Positions 36,668-58,230 are shown, numbered from the stretch's first letter. The stretch: 64,000 bases of DNA from Nitrospirota bacterium (GCA_030682135.1 JAUXQT010000035.1:1022-65021), one strand, 5' to 3'. Notes: generated by a model from the letters alone, not told the origin. Numbers and translations: made by a program.

Positions 36668-36766
36668 GGGTCTCTCTGGTTCATCTGGTCTGTCACGTCT
36701 GTCTGGTTGGTCTCAGGCAACCAAACAAACCAGATAGACCAAATAGACATCTGAACAAGACAGACG
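36668..36766. repeat. RepC 9-mer palindromic array, copy A
   Basis: TCTCTGGTTCATCTGGTCTG..TGTCTGGTTGGTCTCAGG / CAACCAAACAAACCAGATAGACCAAATAGAC; lies between two convergent gene ends. Confidence 0.7.
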
Positions 36767-36767
36767 C

Positions 36768-38948
36768 TTAGGATCGTTCCTGCCAGGCCCGCATGCGCCT
36801 GGCGGTAATGACTCCATCGACCCGCTCAACCGCTTTCAGAACCTGATCGAGATGCTGAGTGCCTGAGACTTCCACGACGAAATCCAGCACGGCCTTCTGA
36901 TCCTCTCGCGTCGTAATCTCGGCGCGGCTGATATTGGCATGACATTCAGCAATCGCGGAAGACACATTCGCCAGTACACCGGTCTTATCGACGGCCACAA
37001 TAGACATTTTCACCGAATGGGTACCGGGCGTGGCCGAGTCCCACTCCACTTCCACCAACCGCTCTTTGTCGTAGTCCAACGCCACAAGATTCGGACAATC
37101 GACGGCATGGATCGTCAGCCCGCGGCCACGAGTGATATAGCCGAGGATGCGATCGCCTGGCACGGGATGACAACAGCGCGACAGCTGCATCAACAGATCG
37201 CGCGACCCTTTGACCTGTACGCCCGTGTCGTCGCTCTTTCCACCCACCGATTTGTGCGGGGCAGAACGCTCCTGAACCGGTTCCGGTGTTCCAACCGGCG
37301 GGACGATGAGTTTGCCAATGACCTGCGATGTCGCCAGGCTGCCGAAGCCCACGGCGGCAGTCAACTCCTCGGTGCTCTCGAATCCAGACTGCCGAGCCAC
37401 GTCCAACAGCTCCGCCGACTTGAACATCTGCGCCGGGGCCATCCCCTGACGCCGGAATTCAGACTCCAGCAAACGACGGCCGATCTCAATGCTCCGCTTC
37501 TGTTCTTCGAGCTTGATCCAATGTTTAATTTTGGTCTTTGCGCGCGAAGTGCGGACAAACTTCAGCCAGTCCTTGTGCGGCGTTTGCGTCGATGAGGTCA
37601 AAATTTCAACCATATCTCCGCTGGCCAGTTCATGCTTGAGGGGCACGATCTTTCCATCCACCTTGGCGCCGACACAATGGTCTCCGACTTCGGTGTGAAT
37701 CGCGAAGGCAAAATCGACAGGCGTCGACCCTTTCGGTAATTCTTTCACAATCCCTTTGGGCGTGAACACGTAGACCACATCGTGAAAAAGGTCGAGCTTC
37801 ACCGAATCCATGAACTGCCGGTTGTCGGATAAATCTTCGTGCCATTCGACGAACTGGTGGAGCCAGCCGAAGGCCTTGGTGTCGCGATCGGCGACCTGTC
37901 CCTGCTCCTTGTACTTCCAATGCGCGGCGATGCCATGCTCGGCGATACGATGCATGTCCTCCGTACGGAGCTGGAATTCGACGTGTTCTCCTTTCGGACC
38001 GACCACCGTCGTATGCAGCGACTGATAGAGGTTGGATTTCGGAATCGCGATGTAGTCTTTAAAACGCCCCGGCACAGGCCGCCAGAGAGAATGGATGACG
38101 CCGAGCAGGGCATAACAATTCATCTTCGTGTCGGTCACGATCCGCAACGCCGTCAGGTCGTACACCTCTTCGAAGGTAATCGACTGCTTACTCATCTTTT
38201 GATAGATGCCGTAGAGATGTTTGGGCCGGCCGTAGACCTGTCCGGCCAATCCGTTCTCTTGCATGGCCTTCTGCATGAGGTGGCCGACTTCCTCGATATA
38301 TTGCTGCCGGTCTTCGTCCCGTTTCGCGACACGAACGCGCAATGCCTCGTACACCTCCGGCTTGAGATGCTTGAGACAAAGATCCTCCAGTTCGTTTTTG
38401 ATCCACCCGATCCCAAGGCGGTTCGCCAGCGGCGCATAGATCTCCAGCGTCTCCTGGGCGATCTCCTTCCGCTTGGGTGGGCTGAGATGTTCCAAGGTGC
38501 GCATGTTGTGGAGCCGGTCTGCCAGTTTGATGAGGACGACCCGGATGTCGTCCGCCATCGAGAGCAGCATTTTGCGGAAATTTTCCGCCTGCTTTTCTTC
38601 ATAACTCCGAAACGTGATCTTGCCGATCTTGGTCACCCCGTCGACCAGATGCACGACGTCTTTCCCGAACTCCCGTTCGAGTTCGTCAGCCGTGGCGACG
38701 GTATCTTCGAGGGTATCGTGCAGGAGCCCCGCAACGATGGCGACCACATCCGTTTTGAGGGAAGAGAGCACACCGGCGACGGCGATGGGATGTTGCAGGT
38801 AGGGTTCTCCGGACCGCCGGAGCTGCCCTTCATGCGCTTTGGCAGAAAAGTCGTAGGCCTTGCGGACTAGGCCGAGGTCGGCATCGGCAGCATAAGTTCT
38901 GATCCGATCCAACAGCTGGTCGAGGTCTGTGACGGTTTCGTACACCAT
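36768..38948 (-). CDS. spoT: bifunctional (p)ppGpp synthetase/hydrolase
   Basis: HD domain (HPIAVA..LHDTLEDT), RelA_SpoT synthetase, TGS and ACT regions. Confidence 0.95.
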   Translation of the reverse strand: MVYETVTDLDQLLDRIRTYAADADLGLVRKAYDFSAKAHEGQLRRSGEPYLQHPIAVAGVLSSLKTDVVAIVAGLLHDTLEDTVATADELEREFGKDVVHLVDGVTKIGKITFRSYEEKQAENFRKMLLSMADDIRVVLIKLADRLHNMRTLEHLSPPKRKEIAQETLEIYAPLANRLGIGWIKNELEDLCLKHLKPEVYEALRVRVAKRDEDRQQYIEEVGHLMQKAMQENGLAGQVYGRPKHLYGIYQKMSKQSITFEEVYDLTALRIVTDTKMNCYALLGVIHSLWRPVPGRFKDYIAIPKSNLYQSLHTTVVGPKGEHVEFQLRTEDMHRIAEHGIAAHWKYKEQGQVADRDTKAFGWLHQFVEWHEDLSDNRQFMDSVKLDLFHDVVYVFTPKGIVKELPKGSTPVDFAFAIHTEVGDHCVGAKVDGKIVPLKHELASGDMVEILTSSTQTPHKDWLKFVRTSRAKTKIKHWIKLEEQKRSIEIGRRLLESEFRRQGMAPAQMFKSAELLDVARQSGFESTEELTAAVGFGSLATSQVIGKLIVPPVGTPEPVQERSAPHKSVGGKSDDTGVQVKGSRDLLMQLSRCCHPVPGDRILGYITRGRGLTIHAVDCPNLVALDYDKERLVEVEWDSATPGTHSVKMSIVAVDKTGVLANVSSAIAECHANISRAEITTREDQKAVLDFVVEVSGTQHLDQVLKAVERVDGVITARRMRAWQERS

Positions 38949-38955
38949 GGTTCAC

Positions 38956-40653: not shown

Positions 40654-40807
40654 GAGGACCCCTTACACGATTCAGAGGCGAAAGAGCGGCTAACTATCTG
40701 AGAATTAAAGGGATACTAGCCTCTCAGCTCTCTGTTGTCAAACGCAGGGATGTGAGGTTTGCGGATGCGGGACGAAAGAACGCCTGATTCGAAAGGCGCT
40801 GCAGGGG

Positions 40808-40852
40808 AATAAAAAAGAGGGAGCAGCCTGCCAGAATCCTGGAGCTACTCCC
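40808..40852 (-). terminator. intrinsic terminator of pup
   Basis: RNA GGGAGUAGC...GCUGCUCCC (one mismatch) followed by UCUUUUUUAUU. The 5' stem arm overlaps the last Gly-Glu-stop codons. Confidence 0.6.
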
Positions 40853-41042
40853 CCCCTTTTTGCACGTAGTTTTTAACGAATTCTTCCGCGTTCTTTTCGA
40901 GCACGTCGTCGATTTCATCGACCAGCTTGTCGATGTCTTCCTTCATCTTCTTGCCGGCCTCGACGACCTTGGGATTGGCCTTAACGTCTTCTTTCCCCTG
41001 CGGCTCACGCCTGGGTTCCTGCTTGCGCTCCTGTTTCTCCAT
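40845..41042 (-). CDS. pup: prokaryotic ubiquitin-like protein Pup (GGE C-terminus)
   Basis: KLVDEIDDVLEKNAEEFVKNYVQKGGE, versus mycobacterial DLLDEIDDVLEENAEDFVRAYVQKGGQ as I recall it. Confidence 0.85.
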   Translation of the reverse strand: MEKQERKQEPRREPQGKEDVKANPKVVEAGKKMKEDIDKLVDEIDDVLEKNAEEFVKNYVQKGGE

Positions 41043-41246
41043 CCGAGCACCTCCCGTGTTTCTGGGAAACCCTCGTGGATCAGCACCAACGTGATCCCTG
41101 CGATCACCTTACTCCAGGGTCATTTCAGCCGTCAAGCCAAGCAAAGAAACGTGAAGTGGCGTCGGTCCGTAGCTATCAGTCATCAGCACGGATCTGAATG
41201 CTGATGGCTTCCGTGCTCGCCCTTCACGAGCGCCGACAACCACTCC

Positions 41247-41370
41247 CAGGATGCTCAAAAATTCCGTCCAGCAAGGCCGCAGGCGAATCGAAACCGGAGG
41301 CGTACCCTCAGGGGTACGTTGAGGATTTCGATGAGCCGAGAACGAAGCTGGCGGACTTTTTCAGCATCCT
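41247..41370. repeat. RepA copy 6
   Basis: CAGGATGCTCAAAAATTCCGTCCAGCAAGGCCGCAGGCG...GGCGGACTTTTTCAGCATCCT; ends 1 nt before the hppA stop codon. Confidence 0.85.
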
Positions 41371-41371
41371 C

Positions 41372-43423: not shown

Positions 43424-43627
43424 TGTGGTCTCCTCCTGTTAGGGGTGTTGGGGGACACCCATTTCCTCTGGCTTCCATCCATCACGATCACGTGTTCGAT
43501 GGGAAACCTCGAAGTATTACAGAATCGATCCGTACAGCTAACTACCTGAAAAGTTGGGCCATTCTATACAGGTGGGAGAGGGGGATCAAGGACGAAAAAG
43601 GGGGGAAGGGAGCAGGCAACCGTCCTT

Positions 43628-43685
43628 CTTGCTCGCAGAACGCGCACAATCGGAATGTGCTCGTCCGATGCGCGCAGTGAAGGAC
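43628..43685. repeat. RepB unit
   Basis: CTTGCTCGCAGAACGCGCACAATCGGAATGTGCTCGTCCGATGCGCGCAGTGAAGGAC. Confidence 0.65.
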
Positions 43686-43718
43686 AGTGTGCCTACTCCC
43701 TATAGAGAAGGTGAAGAA

Positions 43719-43772: not shown

Positions 43773-43825
43773 TGAGAGAGGTACCGAGCGAGCTGGGAGG
43801 GAGGAAGAGGACGCCTGCGTCGGTT

Positions 43826-43883
43826 CTTTGCTCCCGGAACGCGCGCCCTCAGAAGGGCCTCGTTCGACGGCCTCAGTAGAACC
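43826..43883. repeat. RepB unit
   Basis: TTTGCTCCCGGAACGCGCGCCCTCAGAAGGGCCTCGTTCGACGGCCTCAGTAGAACC. Confidence 0.7.
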
Positions 43884-43947
43884 GACAGCAGGCATCCGCC
43901 TAGGAAATGTGGAAAGGAAGGCTGAGAAAGATGCCCGATGATCTTTT

Positions 43948-44015
43948 GGATGAATGTCCAGTCCAGCCAACCAGACAAACAAATCAGACGAGAGAGACCA
44001 GAGAAACCATCCAGC
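43948..44015. repeat. RepC half-copy B (AACCAGA arm only)
   Basis: GGATGAATGTCCAGTCCAGCCAACCAGACAAACAAATCAGACGAGAGAGACCAGAGAAACC; compare copy C. Confidence 0.6.
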
Positions 44016-44021
44016 CGAGTC

Positions 44022-44249: not shown

Positions 44250-44321
44250 AGACGGAGTATAGAAGAAGCACCGAGTGGAGAACAACGCGAGGGGATAGGA
44301 AGGAGAAAACGGGCAACCTGG

Positions 44322-44482
44322 TCGCCCTCCTGCTCGCGGAACGCGCATAGGCTCGCCTGTCTGGTTCTTCCGGATGAATTTCCGGTCCAATCAACCAGAC
44401 AAACCAGATAGACGGGATAGACCAGATGAACCTGCCACCGTTCGACGCGCGCAATGGAAGATCACTCAGGCCCCATCCCTAC
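44322..44482. repeat. RepB unit split by RepC copy C (44357-44432)
   Basis: CTGCTCGCGGAACGCGCATAGG | TGTCTGGTT...AACCAGACAAACCAGATAGACGGGATAGACCAGATGAAC | GTTCGACGCGCGCAATGGAAGATCACTCAGGCCCCATCCC. Confidence 0.7.
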
Positions 44483-44621
44483 GAGACAGCAAGCGATCTT
44501 GGAGGGAGCATCTGTTGCCTTGTTTGACGCCGAAGTGGGACCAACATGGTGCCCTTCCTGGAGAGGAAAAGCGCGCGAGCTTGAAGGGAATGTGAGGAGG
44601 CAGGCTAGACAAGCTCCTATG

Positions 44622-44649
44622 TTGACAACTCATATAGGCACAATGTAAT
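44622..44649 (+). promoter_or_regulatory. candidate promoter/operator of mazEF
   Basis: TTGACA (44622-44627), 16-nt spacer, TGTAAT; overlaps the palindrome GTAATTAC. Confidence 0.35.
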
Positions 44650-44685
44650 TACACGATAGAATTACCTTGAATGTGAGGGGACGGC

Positions 44686-44940
44686 ATGAAGGCACAGGTC
44701 GTGCGAATCGGAAACTCCAAGGGAATCAGGATTCCCAAATCCGTCATCGAGCAATGTCAGTTGCACGGGACGATCGATCTCATTGTGCAACAAGGACAAC
44801 TGCTCGTTCGCTCAGCGACCAAAGCACGGGCAGGCTGGGACCAGGCCTTCGAGCAGATGCATCGCCACGGAGATGACCAGCTTATAGATCGTGAAACAGC
44901 AGCCACGTCTGAGTGGGATCGGAAAAACTGGACGTGGTAG
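44686..44940 (+). CDS. mazE: AbrB/MazE/SpoVT-family antitoxin
   Basis: MKAQVVRIGNSKGIRIPKSVIEQ swapped-hairpin motif. Confidence 0.85.
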   Translation: MKAQVVRIGNSKGIRIPKSVIEQCQLHGTIDLIVQQGQLLVRSATKARAGWDQAFEQMHRHGDDQLIDRETAATSEWDRKNWTW

Positions 44941-45257
44941 TCGCCCGATTCGAGGTATTTCTCGTACGCCTCGCCCCCACTGAGGGCCGTGAAATCCGCA
45001 AGACCCGCCCCTGCCTCATCATTTCCCCTGACGAAATGAATCACCATATCGACACCGTCATCGTAGCCCCCATGACCACAAAAGGCCGCCCCTACCCCAC
45101 CCGCGTCCCAGTTCGATTCAAGGGAAAATCTGGGCAGATCGTGCTGGATCAGATCAGAACCGTGGACAAGGCTCGATTGGTCAAGCGCGTCGGCAAGATC
45201 GGCGCAGTGACCAGAGCGCAGGTCCTCACCCTCCTCGCAGAACTCTTCGCCCCCTAA
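44913..45257 (+). CDS. mazF: MazF/PemK-family endoribonuclease toxin
   Basis: GREIRKTRPCLIISPDEMN...VIVAPMTTKGRPYPTRV...VLDQIRTVDKARL. Start uncertain (ATG 44913 or GTG 44934). Confidence 0.85.
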   Translation: MGSEKLDVVVARFEVFLVRLAPTEGREIRKTRPCLIISPDEMNHHIDTVIVAPMTTKGRPYPTRVPVRFKGKSGQIVLDQIRTVDKARLVKRVGKIGAVTRAQVLTLLAELFAP

Positions 45258-45288
45258 AAGAAGAGCGGCTGGAGGCTGATGATCTTCG

Positions 45289-45345
45289 GTGCTCGCGCAA
45301 CGCGCGGCCTCAGAAGGCCCTCGTGCGATGCGCACAGTTGCTCAC
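45289..45345. repeat. RepB unit
   Basis: GGTGCTCGCGCAACGCGCGGCCTCAGAAGGCCCTCGTGCGATGCGCACAGTTGCTCAC. Confidence 0.7.
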
Positions 45346-46341: not shown

Positions 46342-46662
46342 CTAGAACCGGCTGCGACCGCCGAAATCGTTGCCGCCACGTCCGCCGCCGCCACCACCGC
46401 CGCCGGTGCGGGGTTCTTGTGGCTTGGCTTCGTTCACAGTCAACGGGCGTCCGTCCATCTGTGTGCCGTTCAAGGCGGAAATCGCCGCCTGACCTTCTGC
46501 CTGCGTGGCCATTTCGACGAAGCCGAAGCCTCGCGACTGTCCGGTAAACTTGTCGGTGATCACACGCGCGGACTCGACGGTCCCGTGTGCTGCGAACAAG
46601 GTGGTGAGCTGCGATTCAGTTGCCGCATAGGGCAACCCGCCAACATACAGTTTGGAACCCAT
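46342..46662 (-). CDS. RRM-type glycine-rich RNA-binding protein (paralogue of 4799-5095)
   Basis: KLYVGGL, RGFGFVEM, GGGGGGGGRGG tail; start at MGSKLYV. Confidence 0.9.
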   Translation of the reverse strand: MGSKLYVGGLPYAATESQLTTLFAAHGTVESARVITDKFTGQSRGFGFVEMATQAEGQAAISALNGTQMDGRPLTVNEAKPQEPRTGGGGGGGGRGGNDFGGRSRF

Positions 46663-46715
46663 GGGGGTCCTCCTTCTGAAAATTGATATTGTGGGGAACA
46701 CGAGAACAACTTCAC

Positions 46716-46799
46716 GAGGGGAAGGAGAGGGCCGAAGGCGCAAACAACAAGGCGACCTAGGTCAGACTTCCGATCAGATTCTCGGGAACAACAACATCC
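46716..46799 (-). promoter_or_regulatory. conserved 5' leader block (second copy)
   Basis: GGGCCGAAGGCGCAAACAACAAGGCGACCTAGGTCAGACTTCCGATCAGATTC; see 5144-5232. Confidence 0.5.
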
Positions 46800-46904
46800 G
46801 AAATGGGCCGTGTGATGTGATGTTTCATGCGAGGCCCGCCGCCATGAGACACCTTCACTCTACCATGCATCCGCATGAATAGCCATTCACGGTCATTGGA
46901 CAGG

Positions 46905-47100
46905 CTAGCCCGCATTATTCATGAGCACTTCTGCTGCAATCGCGGATTCGCGGCTACGACAAGCCTTCGGCTGGCAGGCTCGCCGTTCGTTCCCTCGACG
47001 TACTGTTCAAGTACGCCTCGGGCTCTCACGGCTCCGCGTGCCCGTCTCGCGACGCGACTACGCGATTTCGCGACGAACCGTCATGAATAATGCGGGCTAG
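46905..47100. mobile_element. RepD, 196-bp MITE-like element, copy 1
   Basis: Perfect 20-bp terminal inverted repeats CTAGCCCGCATTATTCATGA / TCATGAATAATGCGGGCTAG; no ORF. Confidence 0.8.
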
Positions 47101-47222
47101 ATGAGCGAGAGCCGGTGAGACTACGGGAAATGGAAGTTCGTAACGGCGGCGGTGACGACACAGGCTGGATTGTTAGTGCTCTTCTCGACAAACACGGATG
47201 AATTACGCGATGAAGAATATTC

Positions 47223-47516
47223 CTATGTTTTCGTTTCGAACCGGCAGAATCGAGCGAAGATCAGTGGGAGTGAAGCAGCTGCGCCTGCGCAGAAAAGAAA
47301 GAGTCCGAGCTGCGGAACCTGAAGATATTCGAGCAGGGCGCCAGGAAGCCCTACAGCCGCAGCCCAGCCAAGAACGATTCGCATGCCATTGCTCGGTGGA
47401 ATGACGGACTCACCACCGCAGTCTGGACAGCGATAGGGCGTACGTCTGCTGACGCGCAGGACGCCCAGAGCGCGAATACCTGCTCCGCAGTGGGGACATA
47501 ACCCGGCACTAGTCAT
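47223..47516 (-). CDS. zinc-ribbon membrane protein
   Basis: CPHC...CPDC followed by two TM helices. Confidence 0.45.
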   Translation of the reverse strand: MTSAGLCPHCGAGIRALGVLRVSRRTPYRCPDCGGESVIPPSNGMRIVLGWAAAVGLPGALLEYLQVPQLGLFLFCAGAAASLPLIFARFCRFETKT

Positions 47517-47761
47517 GAGATGTAAGGGCCGCCTTGTTGATTGAATCCAGCTGCTCCAACTACCTTAACGGTACCATACCGATGCACTTTCGTCCCGCGA
47601 TCGGGTCGCCACACATGGGCGCGTGGCGGTCCAGCGTTCTTTGTCCATCCACTCCACTATGTACTCCTCATCCCATACCCTCCGCTGCTCGCGCCCCTCG
47701 CTTCACGGAGCAGCCATAGACCCGCCAAGCCCTGACAACGTAGAATGAGCTGGCTTCATCG

Positions 47762-48046
47762 ATGGGGGAAATCAGAATGGAAGAAGCCCGCTCTGTCGAA
47801 ATTATGGAGATTGTCGTCTGTGCGAGCGGCGGCGTCTATGGCGCAGTATTGGCCTACGGCCTGAGACAGCAGTGGCGCTGGATGACCGATCCACCGGAAT
47901 GGACATCGGTGATCTACTTTCCCACAGTGGTCAAGATGATTTGGGGGCCCACACATGTTCGGACCTTTGCCTATCTGACAGCCTACGGTTCCTTCGCGAT
48001 GAGTCTCTTTTGTCTTGCCCAAGCCGTGGTGGCTTCCTTCAGCTAG
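47762..48046 (+). CDS. small membrane protein
   Basis: 94 aa, 3 hydrophobic segments; its TAG stop lies in the CTAG end of RepD copy 2. Confidence 0.35.
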   Translation: MGEIRMEEARSVEIMEIVVCASGGVYGAVLAYGLRQQWRWMTDPPEWTSVIYFPTVVKMIWGPTHVRTFAYLTAYGSFAMSLFCLAQAVVASFS

Positions 48047-48238
48047 CCCGCATTATTCATGAGCACTTCTGCTGCAATCGCGGATTCGCTGCTATGACAA
48101 GCCCGCGGCGGGCAGGCTCACCGTTCGTTCCCTCGGCGTACTGTTCAAGTACGCCTCGGGCTCTCACGGCTCCGCGTGCCCGTCTCGCAACGCGACTGCG
48201 CGATTTCGCAACGAACTGTCATGAATAATGCGGGCTAG
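48043..48238. mobile_element. RepD, 196-bp MITE-like element, copy 2
   Basis: Same length and orientation as copy 1; about a dozen substitutions by eye. Confidence 0.8.
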
Positions 48239-48247
48239 ATGGTCTCC

Positions 48248-48338
48248 TGTGCTCGCGCAACGCGCAGACCGGTTTATTTAGTTCTTTTAGTTTCTCTCGT
48301 TCAAACAACCAAAAAACGAGATAGACCAGATGAACCAG
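48248..48338. repeat. RepB left half joined to degenerate RepC copy D
   Basis: GTGCTCGCGCAACGCGCAGACC then GGTTTATTTAGTTCTTTTAGTTTCTCTCG / CGAGATAGACCAGATGAACCAG. Confidence 0.55.
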
Positions 48339-48391
48339 CTCCCGCTCGATCGGTGCTTGCGTGAGCCAGGCGAAATAGCTATCCTTCTGGC

Positions 48392-49261: not shown

Positions 49262-49356
49262 GATGCCTCCTCACCAACAAACAAAGACAAATGATCCGCA
49301 CACTCTACTCGATTCGCCGCGGGAATTGCATCGGGACGTGAGTTCAGGAGCAAGCC

Positions 49357-49500
49357 GTTTGGTTTATCTGGTTGGTCTGGTCTGTTTGGTTGGTTTCGCG
49401 ACGTGAACTAGAGAAACGAAATGAACCAGAAGAACCAGGGAAACCAGACACACGAGATAGACCAGTCGGCGGCCTGCGGGAACGGACCGTCAGATTCGGA
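49357..49500. repeat. RepC copy E
   Basis: GTTTGGTTTATCTGGTTGGTCTGGTCTGTTTGGTTGG / AACCAGAAGAACCAGGGAAACCAGACA...GACCAGTCGGCGGCC..GGACCGTCAGATTCGG. Confidence 0.8.
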
Positions 49501-49505
49501 TGAGG

Positions 49506-49832
49506 TTAGGAGGATTCAGGGTGTGAGGTCGCCGGACGGATGCGGATGCGCCCTGGCTCAACAGTCACAATCGCTCCCGCCTGCAATTCTGCCCCGTAGC
49601 GATTGAGGGCCATTACGCAAGCGGTCGCTTGTTGAGAAGCCGACAAGATCACCAGCTGGATAATTCCGGCATGCGCCTGTTCTCGCACCACAGCCAGCTC
49701 ACCGAAATCCTTGTCGAGGGTAATGAGGATACGGCCTTCCAGAGAGGCCCGCGCCAAGATTTCATCGTGCCCGGCTGCCATCAGTGGGGCAACTGTCCCA
49801 CCTGCGATGCAGGTATCCAGGAGAAGTTTCAC
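49506..49832 (-). CDS. DUF5615-type PIN-like toxin (Mut7-C-like)
   Basis: MKLLLDTCI...ILITLDKDFGEL; 4-nt overlap with the upstream DUF433 gene. Confidence 0.7.
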   Translation of the reverse strand: MKLLLDTCIAGGTVAPLMAAGHDEILARASLEGRILITLDKDFGELAVVREQAHAGIIQLVILSASQQATACVMALNRYGAELQAGAIVTVEPGRIRIRPATSHPESS

Positions 49833-50101
49833 GAGGCAGTTTCAAGAGGAAACGGTTCAATTCGCTCGTGACCGACAATCCGATGCGCGTAGGCCAGACA
49901 GGCCTGAATATCCTCGCGCTCCAGCCATGGATAGCCATGAAGAATCGTGTCCGTCGTATCCCCGGCCGCCAGCATGCCGAGCACATGTTCCACGGCAAGG
50001 CGGCGGCCCCGGATAATCGGCTTTCCACCGAAAATCTTCGGGTCGACCGTAATACGTTTAAGAAGGAGTTGCTCATCCATCATAGGCCACCTCACATGCA
50101 C
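49829..50101 (-). CDS. DUF433 antitoxin-like protein
   Basis: ITVDPKIFGGKPIIRGRRLAVEHVLGMLAAG...ILHGYPWLEREDIQACLAYA. Confidence 0.75.
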   Translation of the reverse strand: MHVRWPMMDEQLLLKRITVDPKIFGGKPIIRGRRLAVEHVLGMLAAGDTTDTILHGYPWLEREDIQACLAYAHRIVGHERIEPFPLETAS

Positions 50102-50166
50102 GCATGATAGCGCACTTGTAGGGAGAAGAAAACCAATGGGAGCAGATCACACCACGCGCATGGGAT

Positions 50167-50326
50167 GGTTTGTCTGGTTCCTCTGGTCTTTCTGGTTTGT
50201 TTTGTTTGTCTGGTTGGTCTGGCTTGTTTTATTCAGTGAACCAGAGAAACCAGATCAACCAGAAGAACCAGACAAACCAGATAAACCCATCGGCGGCCAA
50301 TAGGGACGGACCGTCAGATGCGGGAG
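50167..50326. repeat. RepC copy F (best-preserved)
   Basis: Six units NNTCTGGTT, spacer ATTCAGTG, then GAACCAGAGAAACCAGATCAACCAGAAGAACCAGACAAACCAGATAAACCC, tail ATCGGCGGCC..GGACCGTCAGATGCGGG. Confidence 0.85.
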
Positions 50327-51164: not shown

Positions 51165-51277
51165 GCTCCACCCCTTTACGCACCCTTGCACAGTCAACGG
51201 GATTGTGTGCTGCGAGAAGAGAGTCCGGCACCTTCTCGTTTTATACATGGCCTGAAGCGGTCTGCCGGTCGAAACTC

Positions 51278-51306
51278 AGCGAGTCTCTTGCGTATATGCC
51301 AAATAT
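51278..51306 (+). promoter_or_regulatory. candidate promoter/operator of higBA
   Basis: TTGCGT, 17-nt spacer, TAATAT. The inverted repeat TATGC-N8-GCATA spans the spacer and the -10. Confidence 0.4.
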
Positions 51307-51345
51307 AGCATAATATAGCTCGGGATGGCCGCGTAGAGGTGCGGG

Positions 51346-51684
51346 ATGAAGTCGATTCATTTTGTCGGAACGTCACGGGATGATATTCGCGAACTTCCCG
51401 ACAGCGCACAGGAAACGGCTGGCTTTCAGTTATTCAAAGTTCAGCAAGGCAAAGAAGCGGATGATTGGAAGCCGATGCCGACGGTCGGACCTGGAGTTCG
51501 GGAAATTCGGGTCAGGGATGAAAGCGGGGCCTATCGAGTCTTCTATGTGGCCAAGTTCGAAGAAGCCGTGTATGTGCTCCATGTGTTTGAGAAGCGCTCA
51601 CAGAAGACTGCGAGGGCGGATCTAGAACTCGGACAGAGCCGATATGCCGAACTGCTCAAGTGGAGAAGGGAGGAAGGCCTATGA
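51346..51684 (+). CDS. higB: RelE/ParE-superfamily toxin, HigB/Gp49-like
   Basis: IRELPDS...VREIRVRDESGAYRVFYVAKFEEAVYVLHVFEKRSQKT. Confidence 0.8.
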   Translation: MKSIHFVGTSRDDIRELPDSAQETAGFQLFKVQQGKEADDWKPMPTVGPGVREIRVRDESGAYRVFYVAKFEEAVYVLHVFEKRSQKTARADLELGQSRYAELLKWRREEGL

Positions 51685-52037
51685 AACGTGCCACGGTGAC
51701 AAAAGGCAGTGGAAATATTTTCCGCGATCTAGGGTTTTCCGAAGAACGGTCCGCGGAGCTGATTCTGAAAAGCAGTTTATTGCAGGCGCTTCAGGACACG
51801 ATCAGAGGACGAGGCTGGAAGCAGGCGGAAGCGGCAACCCAACTCGGCATTGACCAAGCCAAGATCTCGAAACTACTCGCCGGCCAGATGGCCGGGTTCT
51901 CGGTCGAACGGCTGGTTCATTTTCTGTCCTTGTTGGGCCAGGATGTCGAAGTCACCGTGCGGCAAGCTCCTCGCGGGCGACGCTATGGAACCGTCCTCTC
52001 TAATCTACCCAAGAAGCTCGTCAAGCGCCCGGGATAG
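51681..52037 (+). CDS. higA: XRE-family HTH antitoxin, HigA-like
   Basis: ATGA overlap with higB; GNIFRDLGF...WKQAEAATQLGIDQAKISKLLAG. Confidence 0.8.
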   Translation: MKRATVTKGSGNIFRDLGFSEERSAELILKSSLLQALQDTIRGRGWKQAEAATQLGIDQAKISKLLAGQMAGFSVERLVHFLSLLGQDVEVTVRQAPRGRRYGTVLSNLPKKLVKRPG

Positions 52038-52096
52038 AAGCCTGACTACCGCTCCGGCGAGAAAAGATCCCCGGCACCGTTTGCTTCCTGAGGGAG

Positions 52097-52312
52097 TTAC
52101 TCGCCAGCGACAAGTTCAGCTTCCAAGGGATGGTCTTTGCGAAATCGACTGACGCCAAGCACGCTAAACCCCAGCACGTGGCCCTGCTCATCGACCCGCT
52201 CCATGAGCGCATCATGTGCCGTGGCCCGCATGAAACCCGGGGCCTCACGGAACTGGACTTCAAGATAGTCCGCCTCGGGATCAAACCAGACCTTTACCTT
52301 TTCGGCCATCAC
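52097..52312 (-). CDS. DUF2283 protein (copy 1)
   Basis: KVWFDPEADYLEVQF...GHVLGFSVLGVS. Confidence 0.7.
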   Translation of the reverse strand: MMAEKVKVWFDPEADYLEVQFREAPGFMRATAHDALMERVDEQGHVLGFSVLGVSRFRKDHPLEAELVAGE

Positions 52313-52363
52313 AGCTCTCCCGCCTGATCGGGGATTAGGCAGAACAGATCACCTCGCGTTGCA

Positions 52364-52603
52364 TCACCCAGCCTTGGGCAGGTGAAACTCAGCGGTGACC
52401 GGCAAGTGGAACGTCTCCCCCTTAGCGACACGGGATGAGAAGAAGAGGATTTCGAGATTCTCAAGATCGTGAGTCTGTGGATTGAGTCGCGCAATGACCC
52501 CGTAGTCCAACTCCTCAGAGTCCTGCTCCGGATAGGCTTTGGTTTTACCGAGGTACAAAATATCGCCGGTCTTGTCGTATTCAACTGTCAGGCCCGTTTC
52601 CAT
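52364..52603 (-). CDS. DUF2283 protein (copy 2)
   Basis: LTVEYDKTGDILYLGK...LENLEILFFS; start uncertain (52603 or 52615). Confidence 0.65.
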   Translation of the reverse strand: METGLTVEYDKTGDILYLGKTKAYPEQDSEELDYGVIARLNPQTHDLENLEILFFSSRVAKGETFHLPVTAEFHLPKAG

Positions 52604-52753
52604 ATCACAATTCATCCTGAAAGTTGCCGAGCCACATACGCGGTCACAATCCAATGCCAATCAGTCAAAACTCAGGCCTGCCCCTCAATCTCCCTCTCTA
52701 CCTCTCGACAGAAACGAAGAAAAGACGGCGCAGTTGCCGAAAGCAGGCGGGCG

Positions 52754-52954
52754 CTATCCAGTGGTTTGGAACTCGACCTTCCGTGCTTCCGTCACCCGCT
52801 TGGAGGCATCCAGAATTTCAATGGAGACAAGATTGCCAGCCACATCATAATCCAGAATCACACCAGGCTTATCTTCGTCGCTTTCCGCAACAGGCGTATT
52901 GTCCTTCAGGATCATGCTCAGCGTATCGCTCGTTTTGTCGTACGACACCTTCAT
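52754..52954 (-). CDS. DUF2283 protein (copy 3)
   Basis: MKVSYDKTSDTLSMIL...GNLVSIEILDASK; ATGA overlap with the DUF4258 gene. Confidence 0.7.
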   Translation of the reverse strand: MKVSYDKTSDTLSMILKDNTPVAESDEDKPGVILDYDVAGNLVSIEILDASKRVTEARKVEFQTTG

Positions 52955-53232
52955 GGATTCCTCCAGTATTTCTCGATCTTGCTGGTCAGACATGCGGTCA
53001 CCACCTGTGCCGGGCGCCGATCGACATCCACAAAGACACGAATCAGAAACACCGTTCCAGGCGGTCCTGAAGAAACTTTCGATTGAAGGACCACGCGGCC
53101 AGGTCGAACGTCAATGCGTTGCCCCGGTGAGAGAAGTATCGCACGGACGGTCTCCTCGCTCAAGCCTCGCCGCATTAGTTCAAACCGAGCATGGTCACTG
53201 AACACATAATCTGTAATGGGCTGTGCACTCAC
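52951..53232 (-). CDS. DUF4258-type toxin-like protein
   Basis: FSDHARFELMRRGLSEETVRAIL...VFVDVDRRPAQVVTA. Confidence 0.65.
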   Translation of the reverse strand: MSAQPITDYVFSDHARFELMRRGLSEETVRAILLSPGQRIDVRPGRVVLQSKVSSGPPGTVFLIRVFVDVDRRPAQVVTACLTSKIEKYWRNP

Positions 53233-53305
53233 GAGCCGTACTCCACGGATCTACAGGCCACCTCGGAAACGAGCATGAGCAACAGCATCGGCCTTCACTG
53301 CGGCA

Positions 53306-53585
53306 GAATACATCGGTATCAATATTTTGTGAAGCGCCTGATGGCGGGATGGTCTGTCTGGTTTGTTTTGTTTGTCTGGTTGGATTAGTTTTTCTGGTTT
53401 TTCCGGTTGTGGTTTCCATCCGGCCAACCAGCCAGGCTCATCCCATGCCGTGCCTCTCGCCTTTCCCGCACGTCCCGCTCGCGCTCCTCATCCAACCAAA
53501 TGCACCACATGAACCAGAAGAACCGGACAAACCAGAGAGACCAGTCGGCAGCGTGATAGGTACAGTCAGTCAGAGGAGAGTCGGT
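53306..53585. repeat. RepC composite copy G (~280 bp)
   Basis: GAATACATCGGTATCAATATT...TCTGGTT arm, inner module CCGGCCAACCAGCCAGGCTCATCCCATGCCG..CCCGCACGTCCCGC, AACCAGA arm, tail CCAGTCGGC. Confidence 0.85.
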
Positions 53586-53603
53586 TGATGGCGCAATCCG
53601 CGC

Positions 53604-54992: not shown

Positions 54993-55329
54993 CGATGGAT
55001 TATCCTTGGCTACAGGTTGGTGAGGAATGTTCATGTTAACAGGGACGTTCGTGGTAAGGCGAGCACGCATCGCAGGATCTCTATAGACGCCCAACGATCA
55101 TTCCCGTGCCAACCTTGATAAGGATGAGATGGCCCGGAGAGGACAAGGCAGGCAGAGGCCATTGCAGGCGATGAGTGAACAGGCGCGATTGGCGGGAAGC
55201 CATCCGATTTGGGATTCGCCATCGGCGGCGCGGTGGGGACGAAAACTCAGATGCGGGCGTTACGTGAGGCGGCGTGACTGACGGGACGGCTTCGAATTAA
55301 GTAGCCTGGCCCCTTTTCTTCTTCGAGCT

Positions 55330-56142
55330 TTACTCCTCAGATCCCTCTGTGATCGGCCGGCGGCAGTGCTGCGTCAGAGCATGGGATACCGCATTGATGG
55401 CGTCAGTCGACAGGACCTGCGGCTCGTGGTCGAGAAATTTCCCCAGAGCCTTTGGATTGAGCACCCACACATCTTGCATGCTTCGAGGCCCAGTCCTCTC
55501 CACATACCATTCAGGAAACACCACAACCGGTCGGACCGTAAAGGTTGTTCCCCGACCATCATTCAGCAAATTGGCGAGCCACTGAGCTTGAGCGCGCGCT
55601 TGTTTGAGCGGCTTTTGAAACGAACGGCCATCCTCAAGACGAATGGCCTGACCGTCATAGAACATTTTATGGCTGCCACCCGTTAATTTGCTTCTCGTTT
55701 TCGTTTCAATCATGAAAATGCCTGCAGGCCCCACAATGGCATGGTCGATATTGAAGTTCGCACCAGGGATATCATGAAAGACCCTATAGCCCTTTCCCCG
55801 AAGCGGCTCCAACAGCTCTCCCACTACCCGTTCTCCATCTCGGCCTAATCGGAGGTTCCTGATCATCGACACAAAAGGGAGTCTCTTCCTCCAGGTATAA
55901 ATGATGGCAGCAACCGCCAGCGTGGTTGACGGGAATGGATTGGACGGAGTCGGCATCCACCAACGCAACCATTCGATACCTGCGATAAGGATCAAGAATA
56001 CCGTGACGATCGAGTCCTGCATAAATGTATCTTGCAGCTCGCTGATGCGTTCTTCTAGTGACTGTCCAGGCAGCCGGAGCGGTGGGGTCTTAAGCTGAGA
56101 GCGACGTAGTTGACGATTGGTGTTCCATGCTGAAACAGACAT
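55330..56142 (-). CDS. membrane-anchored NERD-domain protein
   Basis: Two N-terminal TM helices, then GERVVGELLEPL..GYRVFHDIP..FNIDHAIVGPAGIFMIETKT (NERD motif). Confidence 0.75.
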   Translation of the reverse strand: MSVSAWNTNRQLRRSQLKTPPLRLPGQSLEERISELQDTFMQDSIVTVFLILIAGIEWLRWWMPTPSNPFPSTTLAVAAIIYTWRKRLPFVSMIRNLRLGRDGERVVGELLEPLRGKGYRVFHDIPGANFNIDHAIVGPAGIFMIETKTRSKLTGGSHKMFYDGQAIRLEDGRSFQKPLKQARAQAQWLANLLNDGRGTTFTVRPVVVFPEWYVERTGPRSMQDVWVLNPKALGKFLDHEPQVLSTDAINAVSHALTQHCRRPITEGSEE

Positions 56143-56580
56143 ACGCTGATTCCCCCTCTTCGGATGACGAATGAGGATTCATTCTATATCGGCTAGATGT
56201 TTAGGCGTAGATAAGACACGATTCAGACTAAGAGAGTAGCAGCGGGGCGCTTAGGCGTCTGGGGGAGAAGAACGATCGGCTGAGGATCGGCCCGGTCCCA
56301 TGGCGAAACACAGGAGATTGCCAGCCTTATCCGTATGGGGATGGAAGCTGAGATGCGGGCGGTGCGCAGAGCGGCGCGACTTGCGGCGAAAGAGGAACAG
56401 GCCACCCAGCAGCGCCATTCCGAAGAGCACCCCAGCAACCTATTTCATCGTGACAGCTTCTGTTAAATGGGCCTCGCTCAGCAGAGGCGAAATCAGAAGA
56501 AGTGCGACACTGAGGCGACACGATTACCGACAGAAACGACTCCCGGGAGCGCTCCCTCTTCCTGGCAACAGGATCACTCA

Positions 56581-56790
56581 TCACGCAGGCTGATAATGCA
56601 AAACAAGCAGTTGGCGGGTATTCAACGGGACAGTCGCGTAGGTTCGTCCCTCATTATCCACAAACTCCACCTCAAACACATCCGGACCAAGTGACTCAAC
56701 CACGGTCCCCACTTGCCCACGCAGTAAGCCGCGATCAGGGATATCCTCGGTCAGAGCCACTACATCGAGTACACGAATTTCTCGATTCAT
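56581..56790 (-). CDS. DUF4926 protein
   Basis: VVALTEDIPDRGLLRGQVGTVVE...VFEVEFVDNEGRTYA. Confidence 0.65.
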   Translation of the reverse strand: MNREIRVLDVVALTEDIPDRGLLRGQVGTVVESLGPDVFEVEFVDNEGRTYATVPLNTRQLLVLHYQPA

Positions 56791-56805
56791 GATGCCTGCT
56801 CCCTG

Positions 56806-57138
56806 CTAAAGAACAAAACAAGAGGTGAATCGTGGGAAGTCCTCGCCGTGTCGAATGATCCACAAACTCCGTACCATTGCCACTTTCCCCGTACCCTGTG
56901 CCAGAAAGTCTAACGCATACCGCTGTCCATAGTCATCTGCACCGAGAAAACCAGCTTCATCGCGCAGGGCAGCCTCTAAGAGCTGGTGGCGTACGTCTTC
57001 TGCCTGGTCAGCCGTCCACCCCAATGCACGGTTAAAGACGCGAGCCTTATGCTGACCGCGAGGATGTTCGGCACTGAAACAGTAGTCGCGCAGTTTTCGC
57101 ACATCCACGAAGGCCTGTTCAGCATTGGGAAGTATCAT
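56806..57138 (-). CDS. DUF6883 protein
   Basis: KLRDYCFSAEHPRGQHKARVF...LGWT; commonly paired with DUF4926 as I recall. Confidence 0.6.
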   Translation of the reverse strand: MILPNAEQAFVDVRKLRDYCFSAEHPRGQHKARVFNRALGWTADQAEDVRHQLLEAALRDEAGFLGADDYGQRYALDFLAQGTGKVAMVRSLWIIRHGEDFPRFTSCFVL

Positions 57139-57248
57139 GTCGATCAGTCATCCAGTGCGCTCTCAGAGACATCCCGTTACAACGTGAACATGTATATCGT
57201 ATGGCGAAGGGAGATCAATCGCGTGTATGTGAGTGAATCGCCGAATAA

Positions 57249-57504
57249 GAATACATCGGCATCAATATTTCTGGAAGTGCCTGATGGCGGGAGGGTCGGT
57301 CTGGTTTGTTTCGTTTTTCCGGTTGTGGTTTCCAACCGGCCGGCCAATCAGCCAGGCTCATCCCATGCCGCGCCTCTCGCCTTTCCCGCACGTCCCGCAC
57401 GTCCCGCACGCCCCTCATCCAACCAGATCAACCAGAAGAACCAGACAAACCCAATAGACCAGTCTGCGGACTGTGGGGATGGACCGTCAGCTGCTGGCGA
57501 GGTG
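57249..57504. repeat. RepC composite copy H (~255 bp)
   Basis: Colinear with copy G; the inner module has CCCGCACGT repeated three times. Confidence 0.85.
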
Positions 57505-57555
57505 TAGAAATGTGCGACAGGCGGCGAAAGAGGAGAAGACTGCTTGCCCCAACTC

Positions 57556-57825
57556 CTAGCGAAGCGTCCGATAGACCTCACGCCGGTGGCGGACATAGTG
57601 CACCGTAATCTGTCCGGCCTCGCAATCGACTTCATAGACGATCCGATAATCGCCCACACGCAGACGATACAGTCGTTCAGCACCTTACAACTTCGTAGAC
57701 TGCGGTGGATTAGGATGAGCCGGCAAGCGGTCGATCCGGTCAAGAATGCGAGAGGCAATGGAACGCGGAATAGACTGAAGATCTTTCTCGACGGAGGGCT
57801 TGAAGCTGAGGCTATACGAGGCCAC
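57556..57825 (-). pseudogene. relE: RelE/ParE-family toxin with in-frame TAA
   Basis: My translation: VASYSLSFKPSVEKDLQSIPRSIASRILDRIDRLPAHPNPPQSTKL*GAERLYRLRVGDYRIVYEVDCEAGQITVHYVRHRREVYRTLR. The stop codon is at complement 57685-57687. Confidence 0.8.
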
Positions 57826-58027
57826 GTTTCTGAAGCCGCTTTCTCATGTCGTCAGCGCTCACGGGCTTTTCAGCCCGCCGTTCAGCCACCACCGCGAGAT
57901 CGTGCAAGTCTTCCATCAGACGAGAATACCGCTTGAGCGACAGCACCACCCCGGTTCGTTTCCCCGCGCGGTCGGTCACGTACCGTGGCCGAGGTGCCGG
58001 TGCTTTTGCAGATCGTTTAGCCAACAT
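57812..58027 (-). CDS. Phd/YefM-like antitoxin
   Basis: 71 aa; YVTDRAGKRTGVVLSLKRYSRLMEDLHDLAVVAERRAEKPVS; overlaps the toxin GTG start. Confidence 0.7.
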   Translation of the reverse strand: MLAKRSAKAPAPRPRYVTDRAGKRTGVVLSLKRYSRLMEDLHDLAVVAERRAEKPVSADDMRKRLQKRGLV

Positions 58028-58117
58028 AGTGATCTTATAACTCACTGAGGAAAGGTTGTCGAGAAGCCAGCCTACTCCACGTCCGAAGAAGAGCGCAAGC
58101 AGGACTGGCGAGGCCGA

Positions 58118-58230
58118 TTGGTCTGTCTGGTTCTTCTGGTCTATCTGGTTTCTCAGGTTGGATTTCCGGGCCGGCCAACCAGCCAGGCTCATTCCATGCC
58201 GTGCCTCTCGCCTTTCCCGCACGTCCCGCA
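58118..58230. repeat. RepC composite, truncated copy I (left half)
   Basis: TTGGTCTGTCTGGTTCTTCTGGTCTATCTGGTTTCTCAGG..CCGGCCAACCAGCCAGGCTCATTCCATGCCGTGCC..CCCGCACGTCCCGCA. Confidence 0.8.

Follow-up and report, generated by a model that had tools for sequence, protein, structure and literature searches.

Mosaic intergenic repeats with a variable number of sub-repeats include the pneumococcal BOX elements (boxA-boxB(n)-boxC), the bacterial interspersed mosaic elements (BIMEs) of enterobacteria and the enterobacterial repetitive intergenic consensus (ERIC) sequences, and the STRR heptamers of cyanobacteria are a further case of intergenic direct repeats with a 7-nt unit. Repetitive extragenic palindromic (REP) sequences and REPIN elements are mobilized by RAYT transposases (Bertels & Rainey 2011, PMC3116915), and intergenic repeats of the heptamer TAACTGA occur in Beggiatoaceae, cyanobacteria and Bacteroidetes (MacGregor 2015, PMC4679880). 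In the phylum Nitrospirota, only two attC clusters lacking an integrase were recovered by IntegronFinder 2.0 (Neron et al. 2022, PMC9024848). Here, we analyze a stretch of 64,000 nt from a Nitrospirota bacterium (GCA_030682135.1, JAUXQT010000035.1:1022-65021; hereafter the window) that carries, between positions 36,668 and 58,230, palindromic arrays of 9-nt units built on the heptamer TCTGGTT and its reverse complement AACCAGA. Full-text searches of the literature returned no description of this repeat. The best explanation we can offer, held with somewhat less than even confidence, is a lineage-specific, non-coding and non-autonomous mosaic repeat of Nitrospira-type genomes that resembles REP, BIME and BOX elements as well as miniature inverted-repeat transposable elements (MITEs), and whose heptamer would be the recognition site of some factor.

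Identification of nine array copies

Throughout, F arm denotes a run of TCTGGTT units and R arm a run of AACCAGA units; copies in the window are named by their start with the prefix w where needed, and L-numbers denote loci from other genomes. A sequence-only reading of the window had named nine sites, and all nine are true repeat copies: when one mismatch was allowed in TCTGGTT/AACCAGA across the whole 64 kb, clusters of phased units were called at these sites (36675-36760, 43969-44002, 44360-44426, 48295-48339, 49358-49448, 50173-50281, 53357-53536, 57300-57445 and 58126-58183) and nowhere else. The heptamers occur 37 times in the window against 6.52 ± 2.5 expected, a count reached in 0/100 shuffles, and they are confined to 36.6-58.2 kb, where Tandem Repeats Finder reports a period of 9 in the arrays. 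The nine-site feature is real and no artifact.

The full palindromic build that had been described is found in the best copy (50160-50295), with 5-6 units per arm, but does not extend to all nine sites, as copies 43948 and 58118 are halves and copies 44357 and 48271 are degenerate. Folding each copy, as had been proposed, gave a similarly divided result. As single-stranded DNA the best copy reaches -32 kcal/mol (z = -6.75 against dinucleotide shuffles), and copies 49357 (z = -4.23) and 36668 (z = -3.31) also fold significantly, whereas the DNA fold alone of degenerate copies 44357 (z = -1.17) and 48271 (z = -0.08) is no better than that of shuffled sequence. The units are contiguous, each with seven conserved and two freer bases, and lack unique spacers, in agreement with the earlier judgment that they are not CRISPR; a CRISPR array would require 25-40-nt repeats with unique spacers of similar length, and was rejected for these contiguous 9-nt units in mirror-image arrays. 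Three aspects had escaped the sequence-only reading, namely the nesting of arrays within other hairpins (families X and Y, below), the invalidity of its argument on orientation, and the existence of the tail as a separate module that is also found without an array.

Conservation of the heptamer and of arm order

A profile pooled from 200 F-arm and 136 R-arm units of Nitrospira sequence reads R-T-Y-T-G-G-T-T-B and is identical in both arms, with T1, T3, G5 and T6 at least 94 % conserved and only weak constraint on the two spacer positions of the 9-nt unit. Because five perfect AACCAGA heptamers at 50239-50281 are paired with five different spacers, the heptamer pattern is more than a product of ascertainment. 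Between paired units of opposite arms the spacers are no more complementary than expected by chance (0.336 against 0.377 ± 0.037), with 82 % matching in the cores, so that the arms pair through their heptamers alone. What has been preserved is an oriented motif array and not an optimized stem.

All copies had been said to share one orientation, with the TCTGGTT arm on the low-coordinate side. Arm order cannot show this, since (TCTGGTT)n...(AACCAGA)n is its own reverse complement, yet the asymmetric parts of the copies lead to much the same result: reading orientation from the tail (four copies) and from the two apex types places at least 8/9 array copies in the + direction. Three of the four plain copies of hairpin family X are on the + strand as well, which makes 11/12 orientable copies in the window when arrays and X are taken together, and the tails share one direction throughout. 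The order of the arms is itself fixed, as 0.90 Mb of Nitrospira DNA contained 19 arrays in F→R order and none in R→F order, in addition to 31 one-sided or half-degenerate arrays.

Sub-families, tail module and insert Z

Alignment showed the copies to be homologous over their full length and to form two sub-families, within which spacer order and the asymmetric apices are conserved. Sub-family alpha (w49357, w50167, the R arms of w53306 and w57249, L124 and L135) has the apex GGTTGGTTTCGYKACGTGAAC and a tail of ~38 nt (TCGGCGGCC...GGACCGTCAGAT), and sub-family beta (w43948, w44357, w48271, L121 and L137) has the apex TTCCGGATGAATTTCCGGTCC. As spacer order and apex are kept within the sub-families, the copies descend from one another.

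The conserved tail that had been attributed to the copies in general is present at 49462-49499, 50286-50323, 57459-57494 and, in diverged form, 53541-53576; the other copies are tailless. The same module (T, ..GGGRAYGGAMMGTCAGATGCGGG..), which contains a small palindrome (GACGGACCGTC), recurs at 49332-49350 in the window and in relatives at L124:9470-9525 and 11150-11195, L135:1480-1500 and 3820-3865, and L137:400-430. It is found at cassette boundaries with or without arrays, and an uninterrupted site in L135 carries a 6-nt shorter form. T is possibly a recombination site. Three copies (53306, 57249 and 58118) additionally contain an insert of ~50-70 nt between their arms (Z, CCAGGCTCATYCCATGCCGYGCCTCTCGCCTTTCCCGCACGTCCCGC...; 53432-53478, 57352-57398 and 58183-58229), which has a 9-nt repeat of its own (TCCCGCACG x3.4 at 57384-57414, Tandem Repeats Finder). 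Z also occurs in L127 and L121, and in L135 (~6990-7050) a Z-like sequence lies in the opposite orientation and elsewhere within the array, so that Z is present in both orientations across genomes.

The first copy (36668..36765) is degenerate, with ~3 F and ~3 R units and no strand assigned; it occupies the whole gap between the convergent genes for a DUF192 protein (36190-36657, +) and SpoT/RelA (36768-38948, -). Alignment defined the beta copy at 43948..44010 (+) as a half copy that has the apex GGATGAATGTCCAGTCC (43948-43964) and an R arm but no F arm, and its ortholog in L124 is 93 % identical without an indel. In the alpha copy at 49357..49499 (+), the F arm (49357-49387) is followed by the apex GGTTGGTTTCGCGACGTGAAC (49388-49408), an R arm that extends to 49461 and tail T, and the short T-like sequence at 49332-49350 lies immediately to its left. 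The best alpha copy (50160..50323, +) has its F arm at 50166-50227 and its R arm at 50239-50287, followed by the tail, and is placed between a divergent DUF433/DUF5615 toxin-antitoxin pair (-) and a Zn-peptidase gene (+).

The two composite copies (both +) share one build and a common left flank. At 53306..53576, shortly beyond the 3' end of hflX (53604, - strand), the left flank (53306-53327), F arm (53357-53410), apex (53398-53425), Z, R arm (53494-53540) and diverged tail follow one another; at 57249..57494, the left flank (57249-57270) precedes a short F arm (57300-57330), apex (57314-57341), Z, R arm (57421-57458) and tail. The truncated copy at 58118..58229 (+) comprises an F arm (58126-58159), apex and Z, and lacks R arm and tail. 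A tandem heptamer of different sequence (CTCAGAA x5.4) lies at 58302-58339, on the right side of this copy.

Nesting of arrays within other hairpin repeats

A short conserved sequence to the left of several copies is part of a second repeat family, X. This is a hairpin of ~95-100 nt with an outer stem that is variable but complementary and specific to each sub-family, a conserved core whose two halves are inverted relative to each other (TGCTCGCGSAACGCGC ... CTCGTTCGACGCGCGCAGT) and a short hairpin at the apex. Its folding energy is -46 to -72 kcal/mol on the sense strand with RNA parameters, its DNA fold has z = -4.3 to -5.4, and compensatory changes were found at 10/17 consensus pairs (G-C x12 vs A-U x6; G-C x14 vs C-G x3). 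No Rfam match was obtained for X, even with lax filters, and it may represent either a structured RNA not described before or a DNA element resembling REPINs. Plain copies are located at 43605..43700 (+; TGCTCGCRGAACGCGC, short apical hairpin, CTCGTYCGAYGCGCGCAGT; DNA fold z = -5.38), at 43800..43900 (+; another sub-family with the compensatory core variant GCTCCCGG...GACGGC; z = -4.34), at 45265..45340 (+; X alignment) and at 22568..22665, the sole X on the opposite strand (-) of the window, which is flanked by half a Y palindrome (22653-22669). X is also present in L023, L033, L083, L103, L124, L142, L152, L154, L159 and L184.

Beta arrays fill the exact apical position of X in w44310-44475, w48250-48345, L121:9692 and L137:40, with the right half of X resuming afterwards. 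In the first of these (44310..44475, +; identified by X alignment and array units), the left X core (44331-44346) is followed by one F unit (44360-44366), the apex (44372-44388), the R arm (44393-44426) and the right half of X (~44433-44470). In the second (48250..48345, +), a left X core at 48250-48265 precedes the degenerate array at 48271-48345. Arrays of other Nitrospira lineages are enclosed by a third palindrome, Y (CAGGATGCTGAAAAAG(G)CC ... GG(C)CTTTTTCAGCATCCTG), which consists of an A-tract, a GC stem and a T-tract (GCAGGATGCTSAAAAAGGCC ... GGGCTTTTTCAGCATCCTGC) and resembles a bidirectional intrinsic terminator. The arrays are thus one layer among hairpins nested within hairpins. The window contains a plain, full Y at 28485-28632 (DNA fold z = -6.1), which encloses another structured insert; Y also occurs in L064, L070, L074, L080, L096 and L159, and encloses 9-nt arrays in other Nitrospira.

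The same region holds two closely similar copies of a MITE-like element of ~196 bp with perfect 20-bp terminal inverted repeats (CTAGCCCGCATTATTCATGA; 46905-47100 and 48043-48238). A further copy in L135 (7206-7408) is 74-76 % identical, the second window copy ends 12 nt before the combined X and array at 48250, and the end sequence of the element also abuts Y or arrays in L080 and L096. With this element in the stretch, and one copy 12 nt from X and array, the region is a sink for small mobile DNA. A second palindromic array with a different unit was noticed at 27905-27995, where (GTGAT+NN) x5, a 30-nt center and (NN+ATCAC) x4 form a period-7 structure (z = -4.6) directly upstream of the start of a histone-deacetylase-family gene (26950-27894, - strand). 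Its core and period recall what we take to be the heptad operators of the omega repressor of inc18 plasmids.

Distribution and strain comparison

A taxonomic scan of one genome per species, with three perfect units as the query, returned at least 120 loci, including many from Nitrospira and from Nitrospirota metagenome-assembled genomes (MAGs). Among the matches listed, mirror-image arrays are almost restricted to Nitrospira/Nitrospirota loci, with one similar delta-proteobacterial locus (L090). Most listed matches from other taxa are unrelated, being Asn/Gln-rich small open reading frames (ORFs) in gut Clostridia, coding repeats in actinomycetes or minisatellites of identical units, and outside Nitrospira the same array style was found, among the matches listed, in a few MAGs only (GMC4, a WOR-3 bin and L090). 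One-sided intergenic 9-nt arrays with varying spacers were observed in L009, L065, L073, L081 and L115 (MAG 'bacterium GMC4.concoct.256_sub', GC ~0.43), and also in L024 (WOR-3) and L090. A recurrent layout in these MAGs is a ..CTGAA-loop-TTCAG.. hairpin, (AACCAGANN)5-9, a TTGACA-N17-TATAAT promoter and a gene, one example lying upstream of an aspartokinase-like start (MSVVVVKFGGTSLA). These one-sided arrays suggest that the heptamer array exists outside Nitrospira and that the palindrome is not obligatory.

Strain-level variation was assessed in 80 metagenomic loci anchored on the Zn-peptidase ortholog (76-97 % amino-acid identity), and arrays were found in ~10/80 of them, mainly in the closest relatives. 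Between orthologous copies there are point changes as well as indels of roughly one or three units; relative to copy w48271, for instance, the L121 ortholog is longer by 9 nt in the F arm and by 28 nt, or ~3 units, in the R arm. In two Nitrospira species of 88-93 % nucleotide identity, arrays occupy the same two intergenic sites, and the number of units per arm differs. The arms of L080 are unequal (14 vs 3 units), and L117 shows recent higher-order duplications.

Relatives at ~90 % identity also differ by cassette-sized indels that start or end at array, X or tail modules. The segment 49340-50312, which comprises one array, the DUF433/DUF5615 pair and a second array, corresponds to ~0 nt in L135, where the uninterrupted site reads CGGGAT/GTCAGATGCG, and to an unrelated 122 nt with the same tail end in L124. 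Between the X cores at 44331 and in 45265..45340, 942 nt (44348-45289) are missing in L124, which has one hybrid X there. An indel at 46899-48343 ends at the R arm of copy 48271, and another at 51235-53547 ends at the R arm and tail of copy 53306; at the latter site, L124 and L135 carry another toxin-antitoxin cassette that is arrayless and closed by the same tail. One segment, together with its array, is located at another position in L135. An imperfect 5-nt repeat (GTGAG/GTCAG) around one composite insertion is the only candidate for a target-site duplication.

Gene context and search for a mobilizing enzyme

Gene context was derived with a crude ORF caller (>= 80 aa, GC3 >= 0.60). The window is ordinary bacterial chromosome and encodes UvrA, UvrB, SpoT/RelA, RecJ, an H+-pyrophosphatase, HflX, an RRM protein and a Zn-peptidase, as well as the toxin-antitoxin pairs Gp49/HTH_37 and DUF433/DUF5615, a NERD protein and, at its right end, defense-type helicase/ATPase genes. 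The description of the arrays as intergenic is correct relative to every ORF with family support, but several copies are crossed by unsupported ORFs (50136-50303, 53223-53588, 56986-57507 and 57812-58231). Across 34 arrays the neighboring genes are convergent in 11 cases, tandem in 14 and divergent in 9, and copy 50167 is flanked by two gene starts. In several genomes an array can fill the entire intergenic gap, from 5-15 nt past a stop codon or up to just before a start codon. Such a mixed gene context implies no single transcriptional logic.

That the window lacks a transposase or integrase was borne out by a domain scan of its ~60 ORFs, which contained neither of these nor any other recombinase domain. 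The 302-aa ORF beside the first copy encodes a flavodoxin/FMN-reductase-like protein. No insertion sequence (IS) or transposase was found in the window or beside 37 arrays elsewhere, and among the families listed for 136 ORFs within 2.5 kb of arrays in other genomes there was no transposase or integrase; nothing recurred in a Pfam search of these 136 ORFs beyond the anchor Zn-peptidase and common dehydrogenase domains. RAYT (Y1 HUH) transposases were likewise absent from the scanned window ORFs and from the array-adjacent ORFs of other genomes. The array-rich stretch itself is flexible and defense-like (49506-50101, 51346-52037, 55330-56142, 56806-57138 and 58527-63972), holding DUF433/DUF5615, Gp49 (HigB-like)/HTH_37, a NERD nuclease-related protein, DUF6883, a 1038-aa ResIII helicase-like protein, a 552-aa AAA_21/AAA_15 ATPase and a 225-aa ORF of no family.

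Alternative explanations

The first alternative, which we consider unlikely but worth serious attention, is a cis-acting RNA element, with arrays transcribed within 3' or 5' untranslated regions, where they would stabilize or terminate mRNAs as hairpins or offer an RNA-binding protein a (UCUGGUU)n platform, and with the F→R order explained by a transcript from either side meeting the U/G-rich array first. Many arrays elsewhere in Nitrospira do lie 5-15 nt past a stop codon and fill convergent gaps, convergent genes being given as the commonest single context class (11/34), and some sit within the terminator-like Y palindrome; the hairpins of the best copies are very stable, two species have kept arrays at orthologous sites, and the RRM-domain RNA-binding protein is encoded nearby (46342-46743). 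Against this, folding both strands revealed no consistent strand asymmetry of fold energy or G·U count, and the 9/34 arrays between divergent genes and 14/34 between tandem genes, together with the position of copy 50167 between two gene starts, leave no consistent polarity. The non-complementary spacers indicate that the hairpin is not optimized, and array presence varies even among nearly identical strains. Nor do the arrays have a T-run after the stem; a terminator scan marked small flanking hairpins only, and a role as intrinsic terminators was rejected. Rfam gave no match at gathering threshold over 64 kb and, at E <= 1 in 36-59 kb, only sub-threshold eukaryotic miRNA hairpin models on 50187-50285. 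With no strand asymmetry, no Rfam relative and no consistent position relative to gene direction, the structured RNA proposed in the sequence-only reading gains no particular support. The protein-binding array of that reading is still plausible, given that the heptamer is conserved while spacers are non-complementary between arms. In the form of a host array on double-stranded DNA, with the subunits of a cooperative protein, one per 9-bp unit, spreading from the center in both directions (as an operator, insulator, nucleoid-associated or centromere-like system), this idea is decidedly unlikely in our judgment. It would fit the free spacers and identical profile of both arms, their single relative orientation (19:0), the GTGAT array of like design just upstream of a gene start, and the one-sided arrays placed between hairpin and promoter in the unclassified MAG. 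It fits poorly with a 9-bp register that is off the helical repeat, with functionally unrelated flanking genes and no candidate binder recurring beside arrays, with the frequency of degenerate and half copies, and with the lack of arrays at orthologous sites in most relatives, which would be odd for a housekeeping regulator.

The remaining alternatives are less probable again. An integron-like cassette system, in which the tail, with or without the array hairpin, is an attC-like site at the 3' end of cassettes whose recombinase is encoded elsewhere, is very improbable, although the insertion sites are suggestive: one site holds three different inserts (an array only, a toxin-antitoxin pair with an array, and the unrelated 122 nt), each starting with GTSAR and ending in a related ~40-nt tail (...GGGA..GAMC, then GTCAGAT), and is uninterrupted in L135. 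The tail also closes the unrelated arrayless toxin-antitoxin cassette in L124 and L135, one cassette lies with its array at another position in L135, all tails are co-directed, and the GTCAGAT core agrees with 6/7 positions of the attC R' consensus GTTRRRY. Tandem units ending in the tail are seen at 49338-50323, and core genes lie between sites, with conserved housekeeping genes (H+-PPase, Zn-peptidase and HflX) separating the 'cassettes'. Membership in the attC/integron class was rejected, as no intI or Phage_integrase domain occurs among the ~60 window ORFs, no complementary R'' box (RYYYAAC) or other partner lies upstream of the GTSAGAT core, and GTT precedes AAC in the arrays, the reverse of attC. 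Arrays in other Nitrospira are tailless and stand among ordinary genes, integrase-less attC clusters are scarce in the phylum, and homologous recombination between repeated tails would yield the same junctions. Equally improbable is a neutral origin, in which slippage-prone minisatellites without reader or mobility would expand inside existing hairpins through replication slippage and template switches from one arm to the other. In its favor are the indels of roughly one or three units that separate orthologs, the unequal arms of L080, the recent duplications in L117 and the sporadic occurrence of simple 9-mer minisatellites with the same core in unrelated taxa. Yet neighboring units almost always keep the heptamer and vary in spacer, the heptamer is shared by three host contexts (X, Y and stand-alone) and across Nitrospira lineages, and template switching between arms would give complementary spacers, which are not observed; whole-element homology between dispersed copies, moreover, requires duplication or transfer of entire elements. 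Least credible of all are genes for small membrane peptides such as type I toxins, in which the T/G-rich arm would encode a hydrophobic helix and the A/C-rich arm a polar tail. Several copies are crossed by open frames, and since the period equals three codons such frames run through the copies in any case. Copy 50167 has an ATG with a Shine-Dalgarno-like sequence upstream (GGGAG), its ORF (50136-50303) encoding a 55-residue peptide (MGADHTTRMGWFVWFLWSFWFVLFVWLVWLVLFSEPEKPDQPEEPDKPDKPIGGQ) with a Trp-rich hydrophobic helix and an (E/K)P(D/E) tail, and copy 48271 and its L121 ortholog both start with ATG and read M(V/I)xCAR(A/T)TRR before a hydrophobic stretch. In six-frame translation, however, every frame of the F arm is hydrophobic and every frame of the R arm polar, on both strands, so that such 'proteins' arise automatically; the 50136-50303 ORF is probably a fortuitous product of repeat composition, yet no other copy has a complete gene-like layout. 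Neither start codon nor ribosome-binding site nor frame is conserved among homologous copies, which led us to reject a coding role: copy 49357 lacks a start codon, the frame of 50167 is interrupted by a stop in copy 53306, and the 28-nt indel between orthologs changes the C-terminus. The frame offset between arms is unconstrained (0:15, 1:12, 2:21), the commonest gaps between arms (1 and 10 nt) follow from palindromic symmetry, and Pfam gave no match for the ORFs running through copies.

A non-autonomous mosaic repeat as the proposed explanation

A non-autonomous mosaic repeat is the explanation best supported by these observations. Of the three possibilities raised in the sequence-only reading, a MITE with internal tandem repeats comes closest: full-length homology, dispersal and presence or absence at ~90 % identity agree with it, whereas terminal repeats shared with an IS and a clean target-site duplication were not seen in the window or beside the arrays scanned elsewhere. 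Like MITEs, the arrays are small, non-coding, multi-copy and polymorphic for presence, and like REP/REPIN elements they form mirror pairs outside genes, with the halves of the X core being inverted copies that form a ~95-nt hairpin. Under this explanation, the family would spread or be reshuffled in trans, through recombination between repeat modules or through the action of an enzyme whose gene lies elsewhere in the genome. The route would probably involve hairpin or single-stranded intermediates, which would account for the nesting in hairpin apices as well as for the local co-orientation. As the heptamer and not the hairpin has been kept, the heptamer would be what that enzyme, or else a host factor, recognizes, and the main effect on the host would be to create hot spots of recombination and insertion in the flexible genome.

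Several observations weigh against this explanation. No mobilizing enzyme was found in the window or in array-flanking ORFs, and the sequence covered showed neither terminal inverted repeats in common with known IS nor a clean target-site duplication. The indels are equally explicable by homologous recombination between repeat modules without transposition, and the persistence of arrays at orthologous sites of two species also fits a host function. Conserved heptamers with free spacers point to a sequence-specific reader, which is not necessarily a mobility enzyme, and the conservation itself is partly a matter of ascertainment, the units having been found by heptamer similarity. Finally, the co-oriented copies may not be independent, since local duplications are possible for some.

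Three properties of the repeat are unusual: the conserved heptamer forms mirror arrays in a 9-nt register whose spacers do not pair, the F→R order never varies, and the arrays are nested in two other hairpin families. A bolder proposal, which we regard as improbable, is that the heptamer arrays are a docking platform, with one subunit per 9 nt, for a sequence-specific protein on extruded hairpins or single-stranded DNA, and that they would represent a new class of mobile element that inserts into hairpin apices and that, together with the tail module, would drive the exchange of cassettes, including toxin-antitoxin pairs, at fixed chromosomal sites without an integron integrase or attC. Nitrospira are key nitrifiers that are mostly known from metagenomes, and a nested hairpin family offers an explanation for assembly breaks and strain-level indels in their genomes. 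The arrays also mark hot spots at which accessory cassettes (toxin-antitoxin pairs and nuclease-like genes) are swapped. The retention in both palindrome arms of a 7-nt motif rather than of base pairing implies a sequence-specific reader; if this were a recombinase or transposase, the arrays would represent a new route of cassette exchange, and if it were a host DNA- or RNA-binding protein, they would define a regulon-like set of intergenic sites.

Comparison with known systems

Among the systems compared, the TAACTGA repeats are a looser parallel. They too are intergenic arrays of a short motif (2-40 units) with patchy phylogeny and no known mechanism, and a binding protein has been proposed for them. 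However, the TAACTGA units are 7-mers that directly abut, all in one orientation and for the most part immediately upstream of start codons, whereas the arrays described here have a period of 9 (7+2), form mirror pairs in fixed order and occupy mixed positions relative to genes. With attC sites and cassette arrays they share co-oriented imperfect palindromes at the ends of variable cassettes, often toxin-antitoxin pairs, and a conserved 7-nt core at the boundaries; unlike these, they have no IntI and no R''/L''/L'/R' boxes, their 'cassettes' are interspersed with core genes, and arrays in other genomes are not associated with cassettes. Similarity to MITEs lies in small size, non-coding sequence, dispersal, inverted-repeat build and presence or absence among strains, and the ~196-bp element in the same region is a classical example of that class. 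The arrays differ in showing no defined IS-related terminal inverted repeats and no clean duplication in the sequence covered, and in that their inverted repeat consists of tandem motifs with unmatched spacers.

Closer still are the modular intergenic repeats. Like BOX, BIME and ERIC elements, the arrays are modular, intergenic and restricted to a species or genus, have stem-loop potential and a variable internal module, and are enlarged by internal insertions. They differ in having a 9-nt sub-repeat arranged in two mirror arrays and share no sequence similarity with these families; we know of no description of BOX, BIME or ERIC elements nested inside two other hairpin families. Like REP/REPIN elements, they are short, extragenic and non-autonomous, occur in many copies per genome and in lineage-specific blooms, and pair inverted conserved sequences into a long hairpin, the X core being exactly such an inverted doublet; the REPIN enzyme, too, acts in trans from elsewhere in the genome. 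In contrast to REP/REPIN elements, they have no GTAG-type REP head, their arms consist of 3-14 tandem 9-nt units instead of one ~25-nt palindrome, the outer stem of X is variable and compensating, and no RAYT was seen in the scanned sequence. Overall, the element works most like REPIN/REP doublets and the modular repeats of the BOX, BIME and ERIC type, without being a member of any of these families by sequence.

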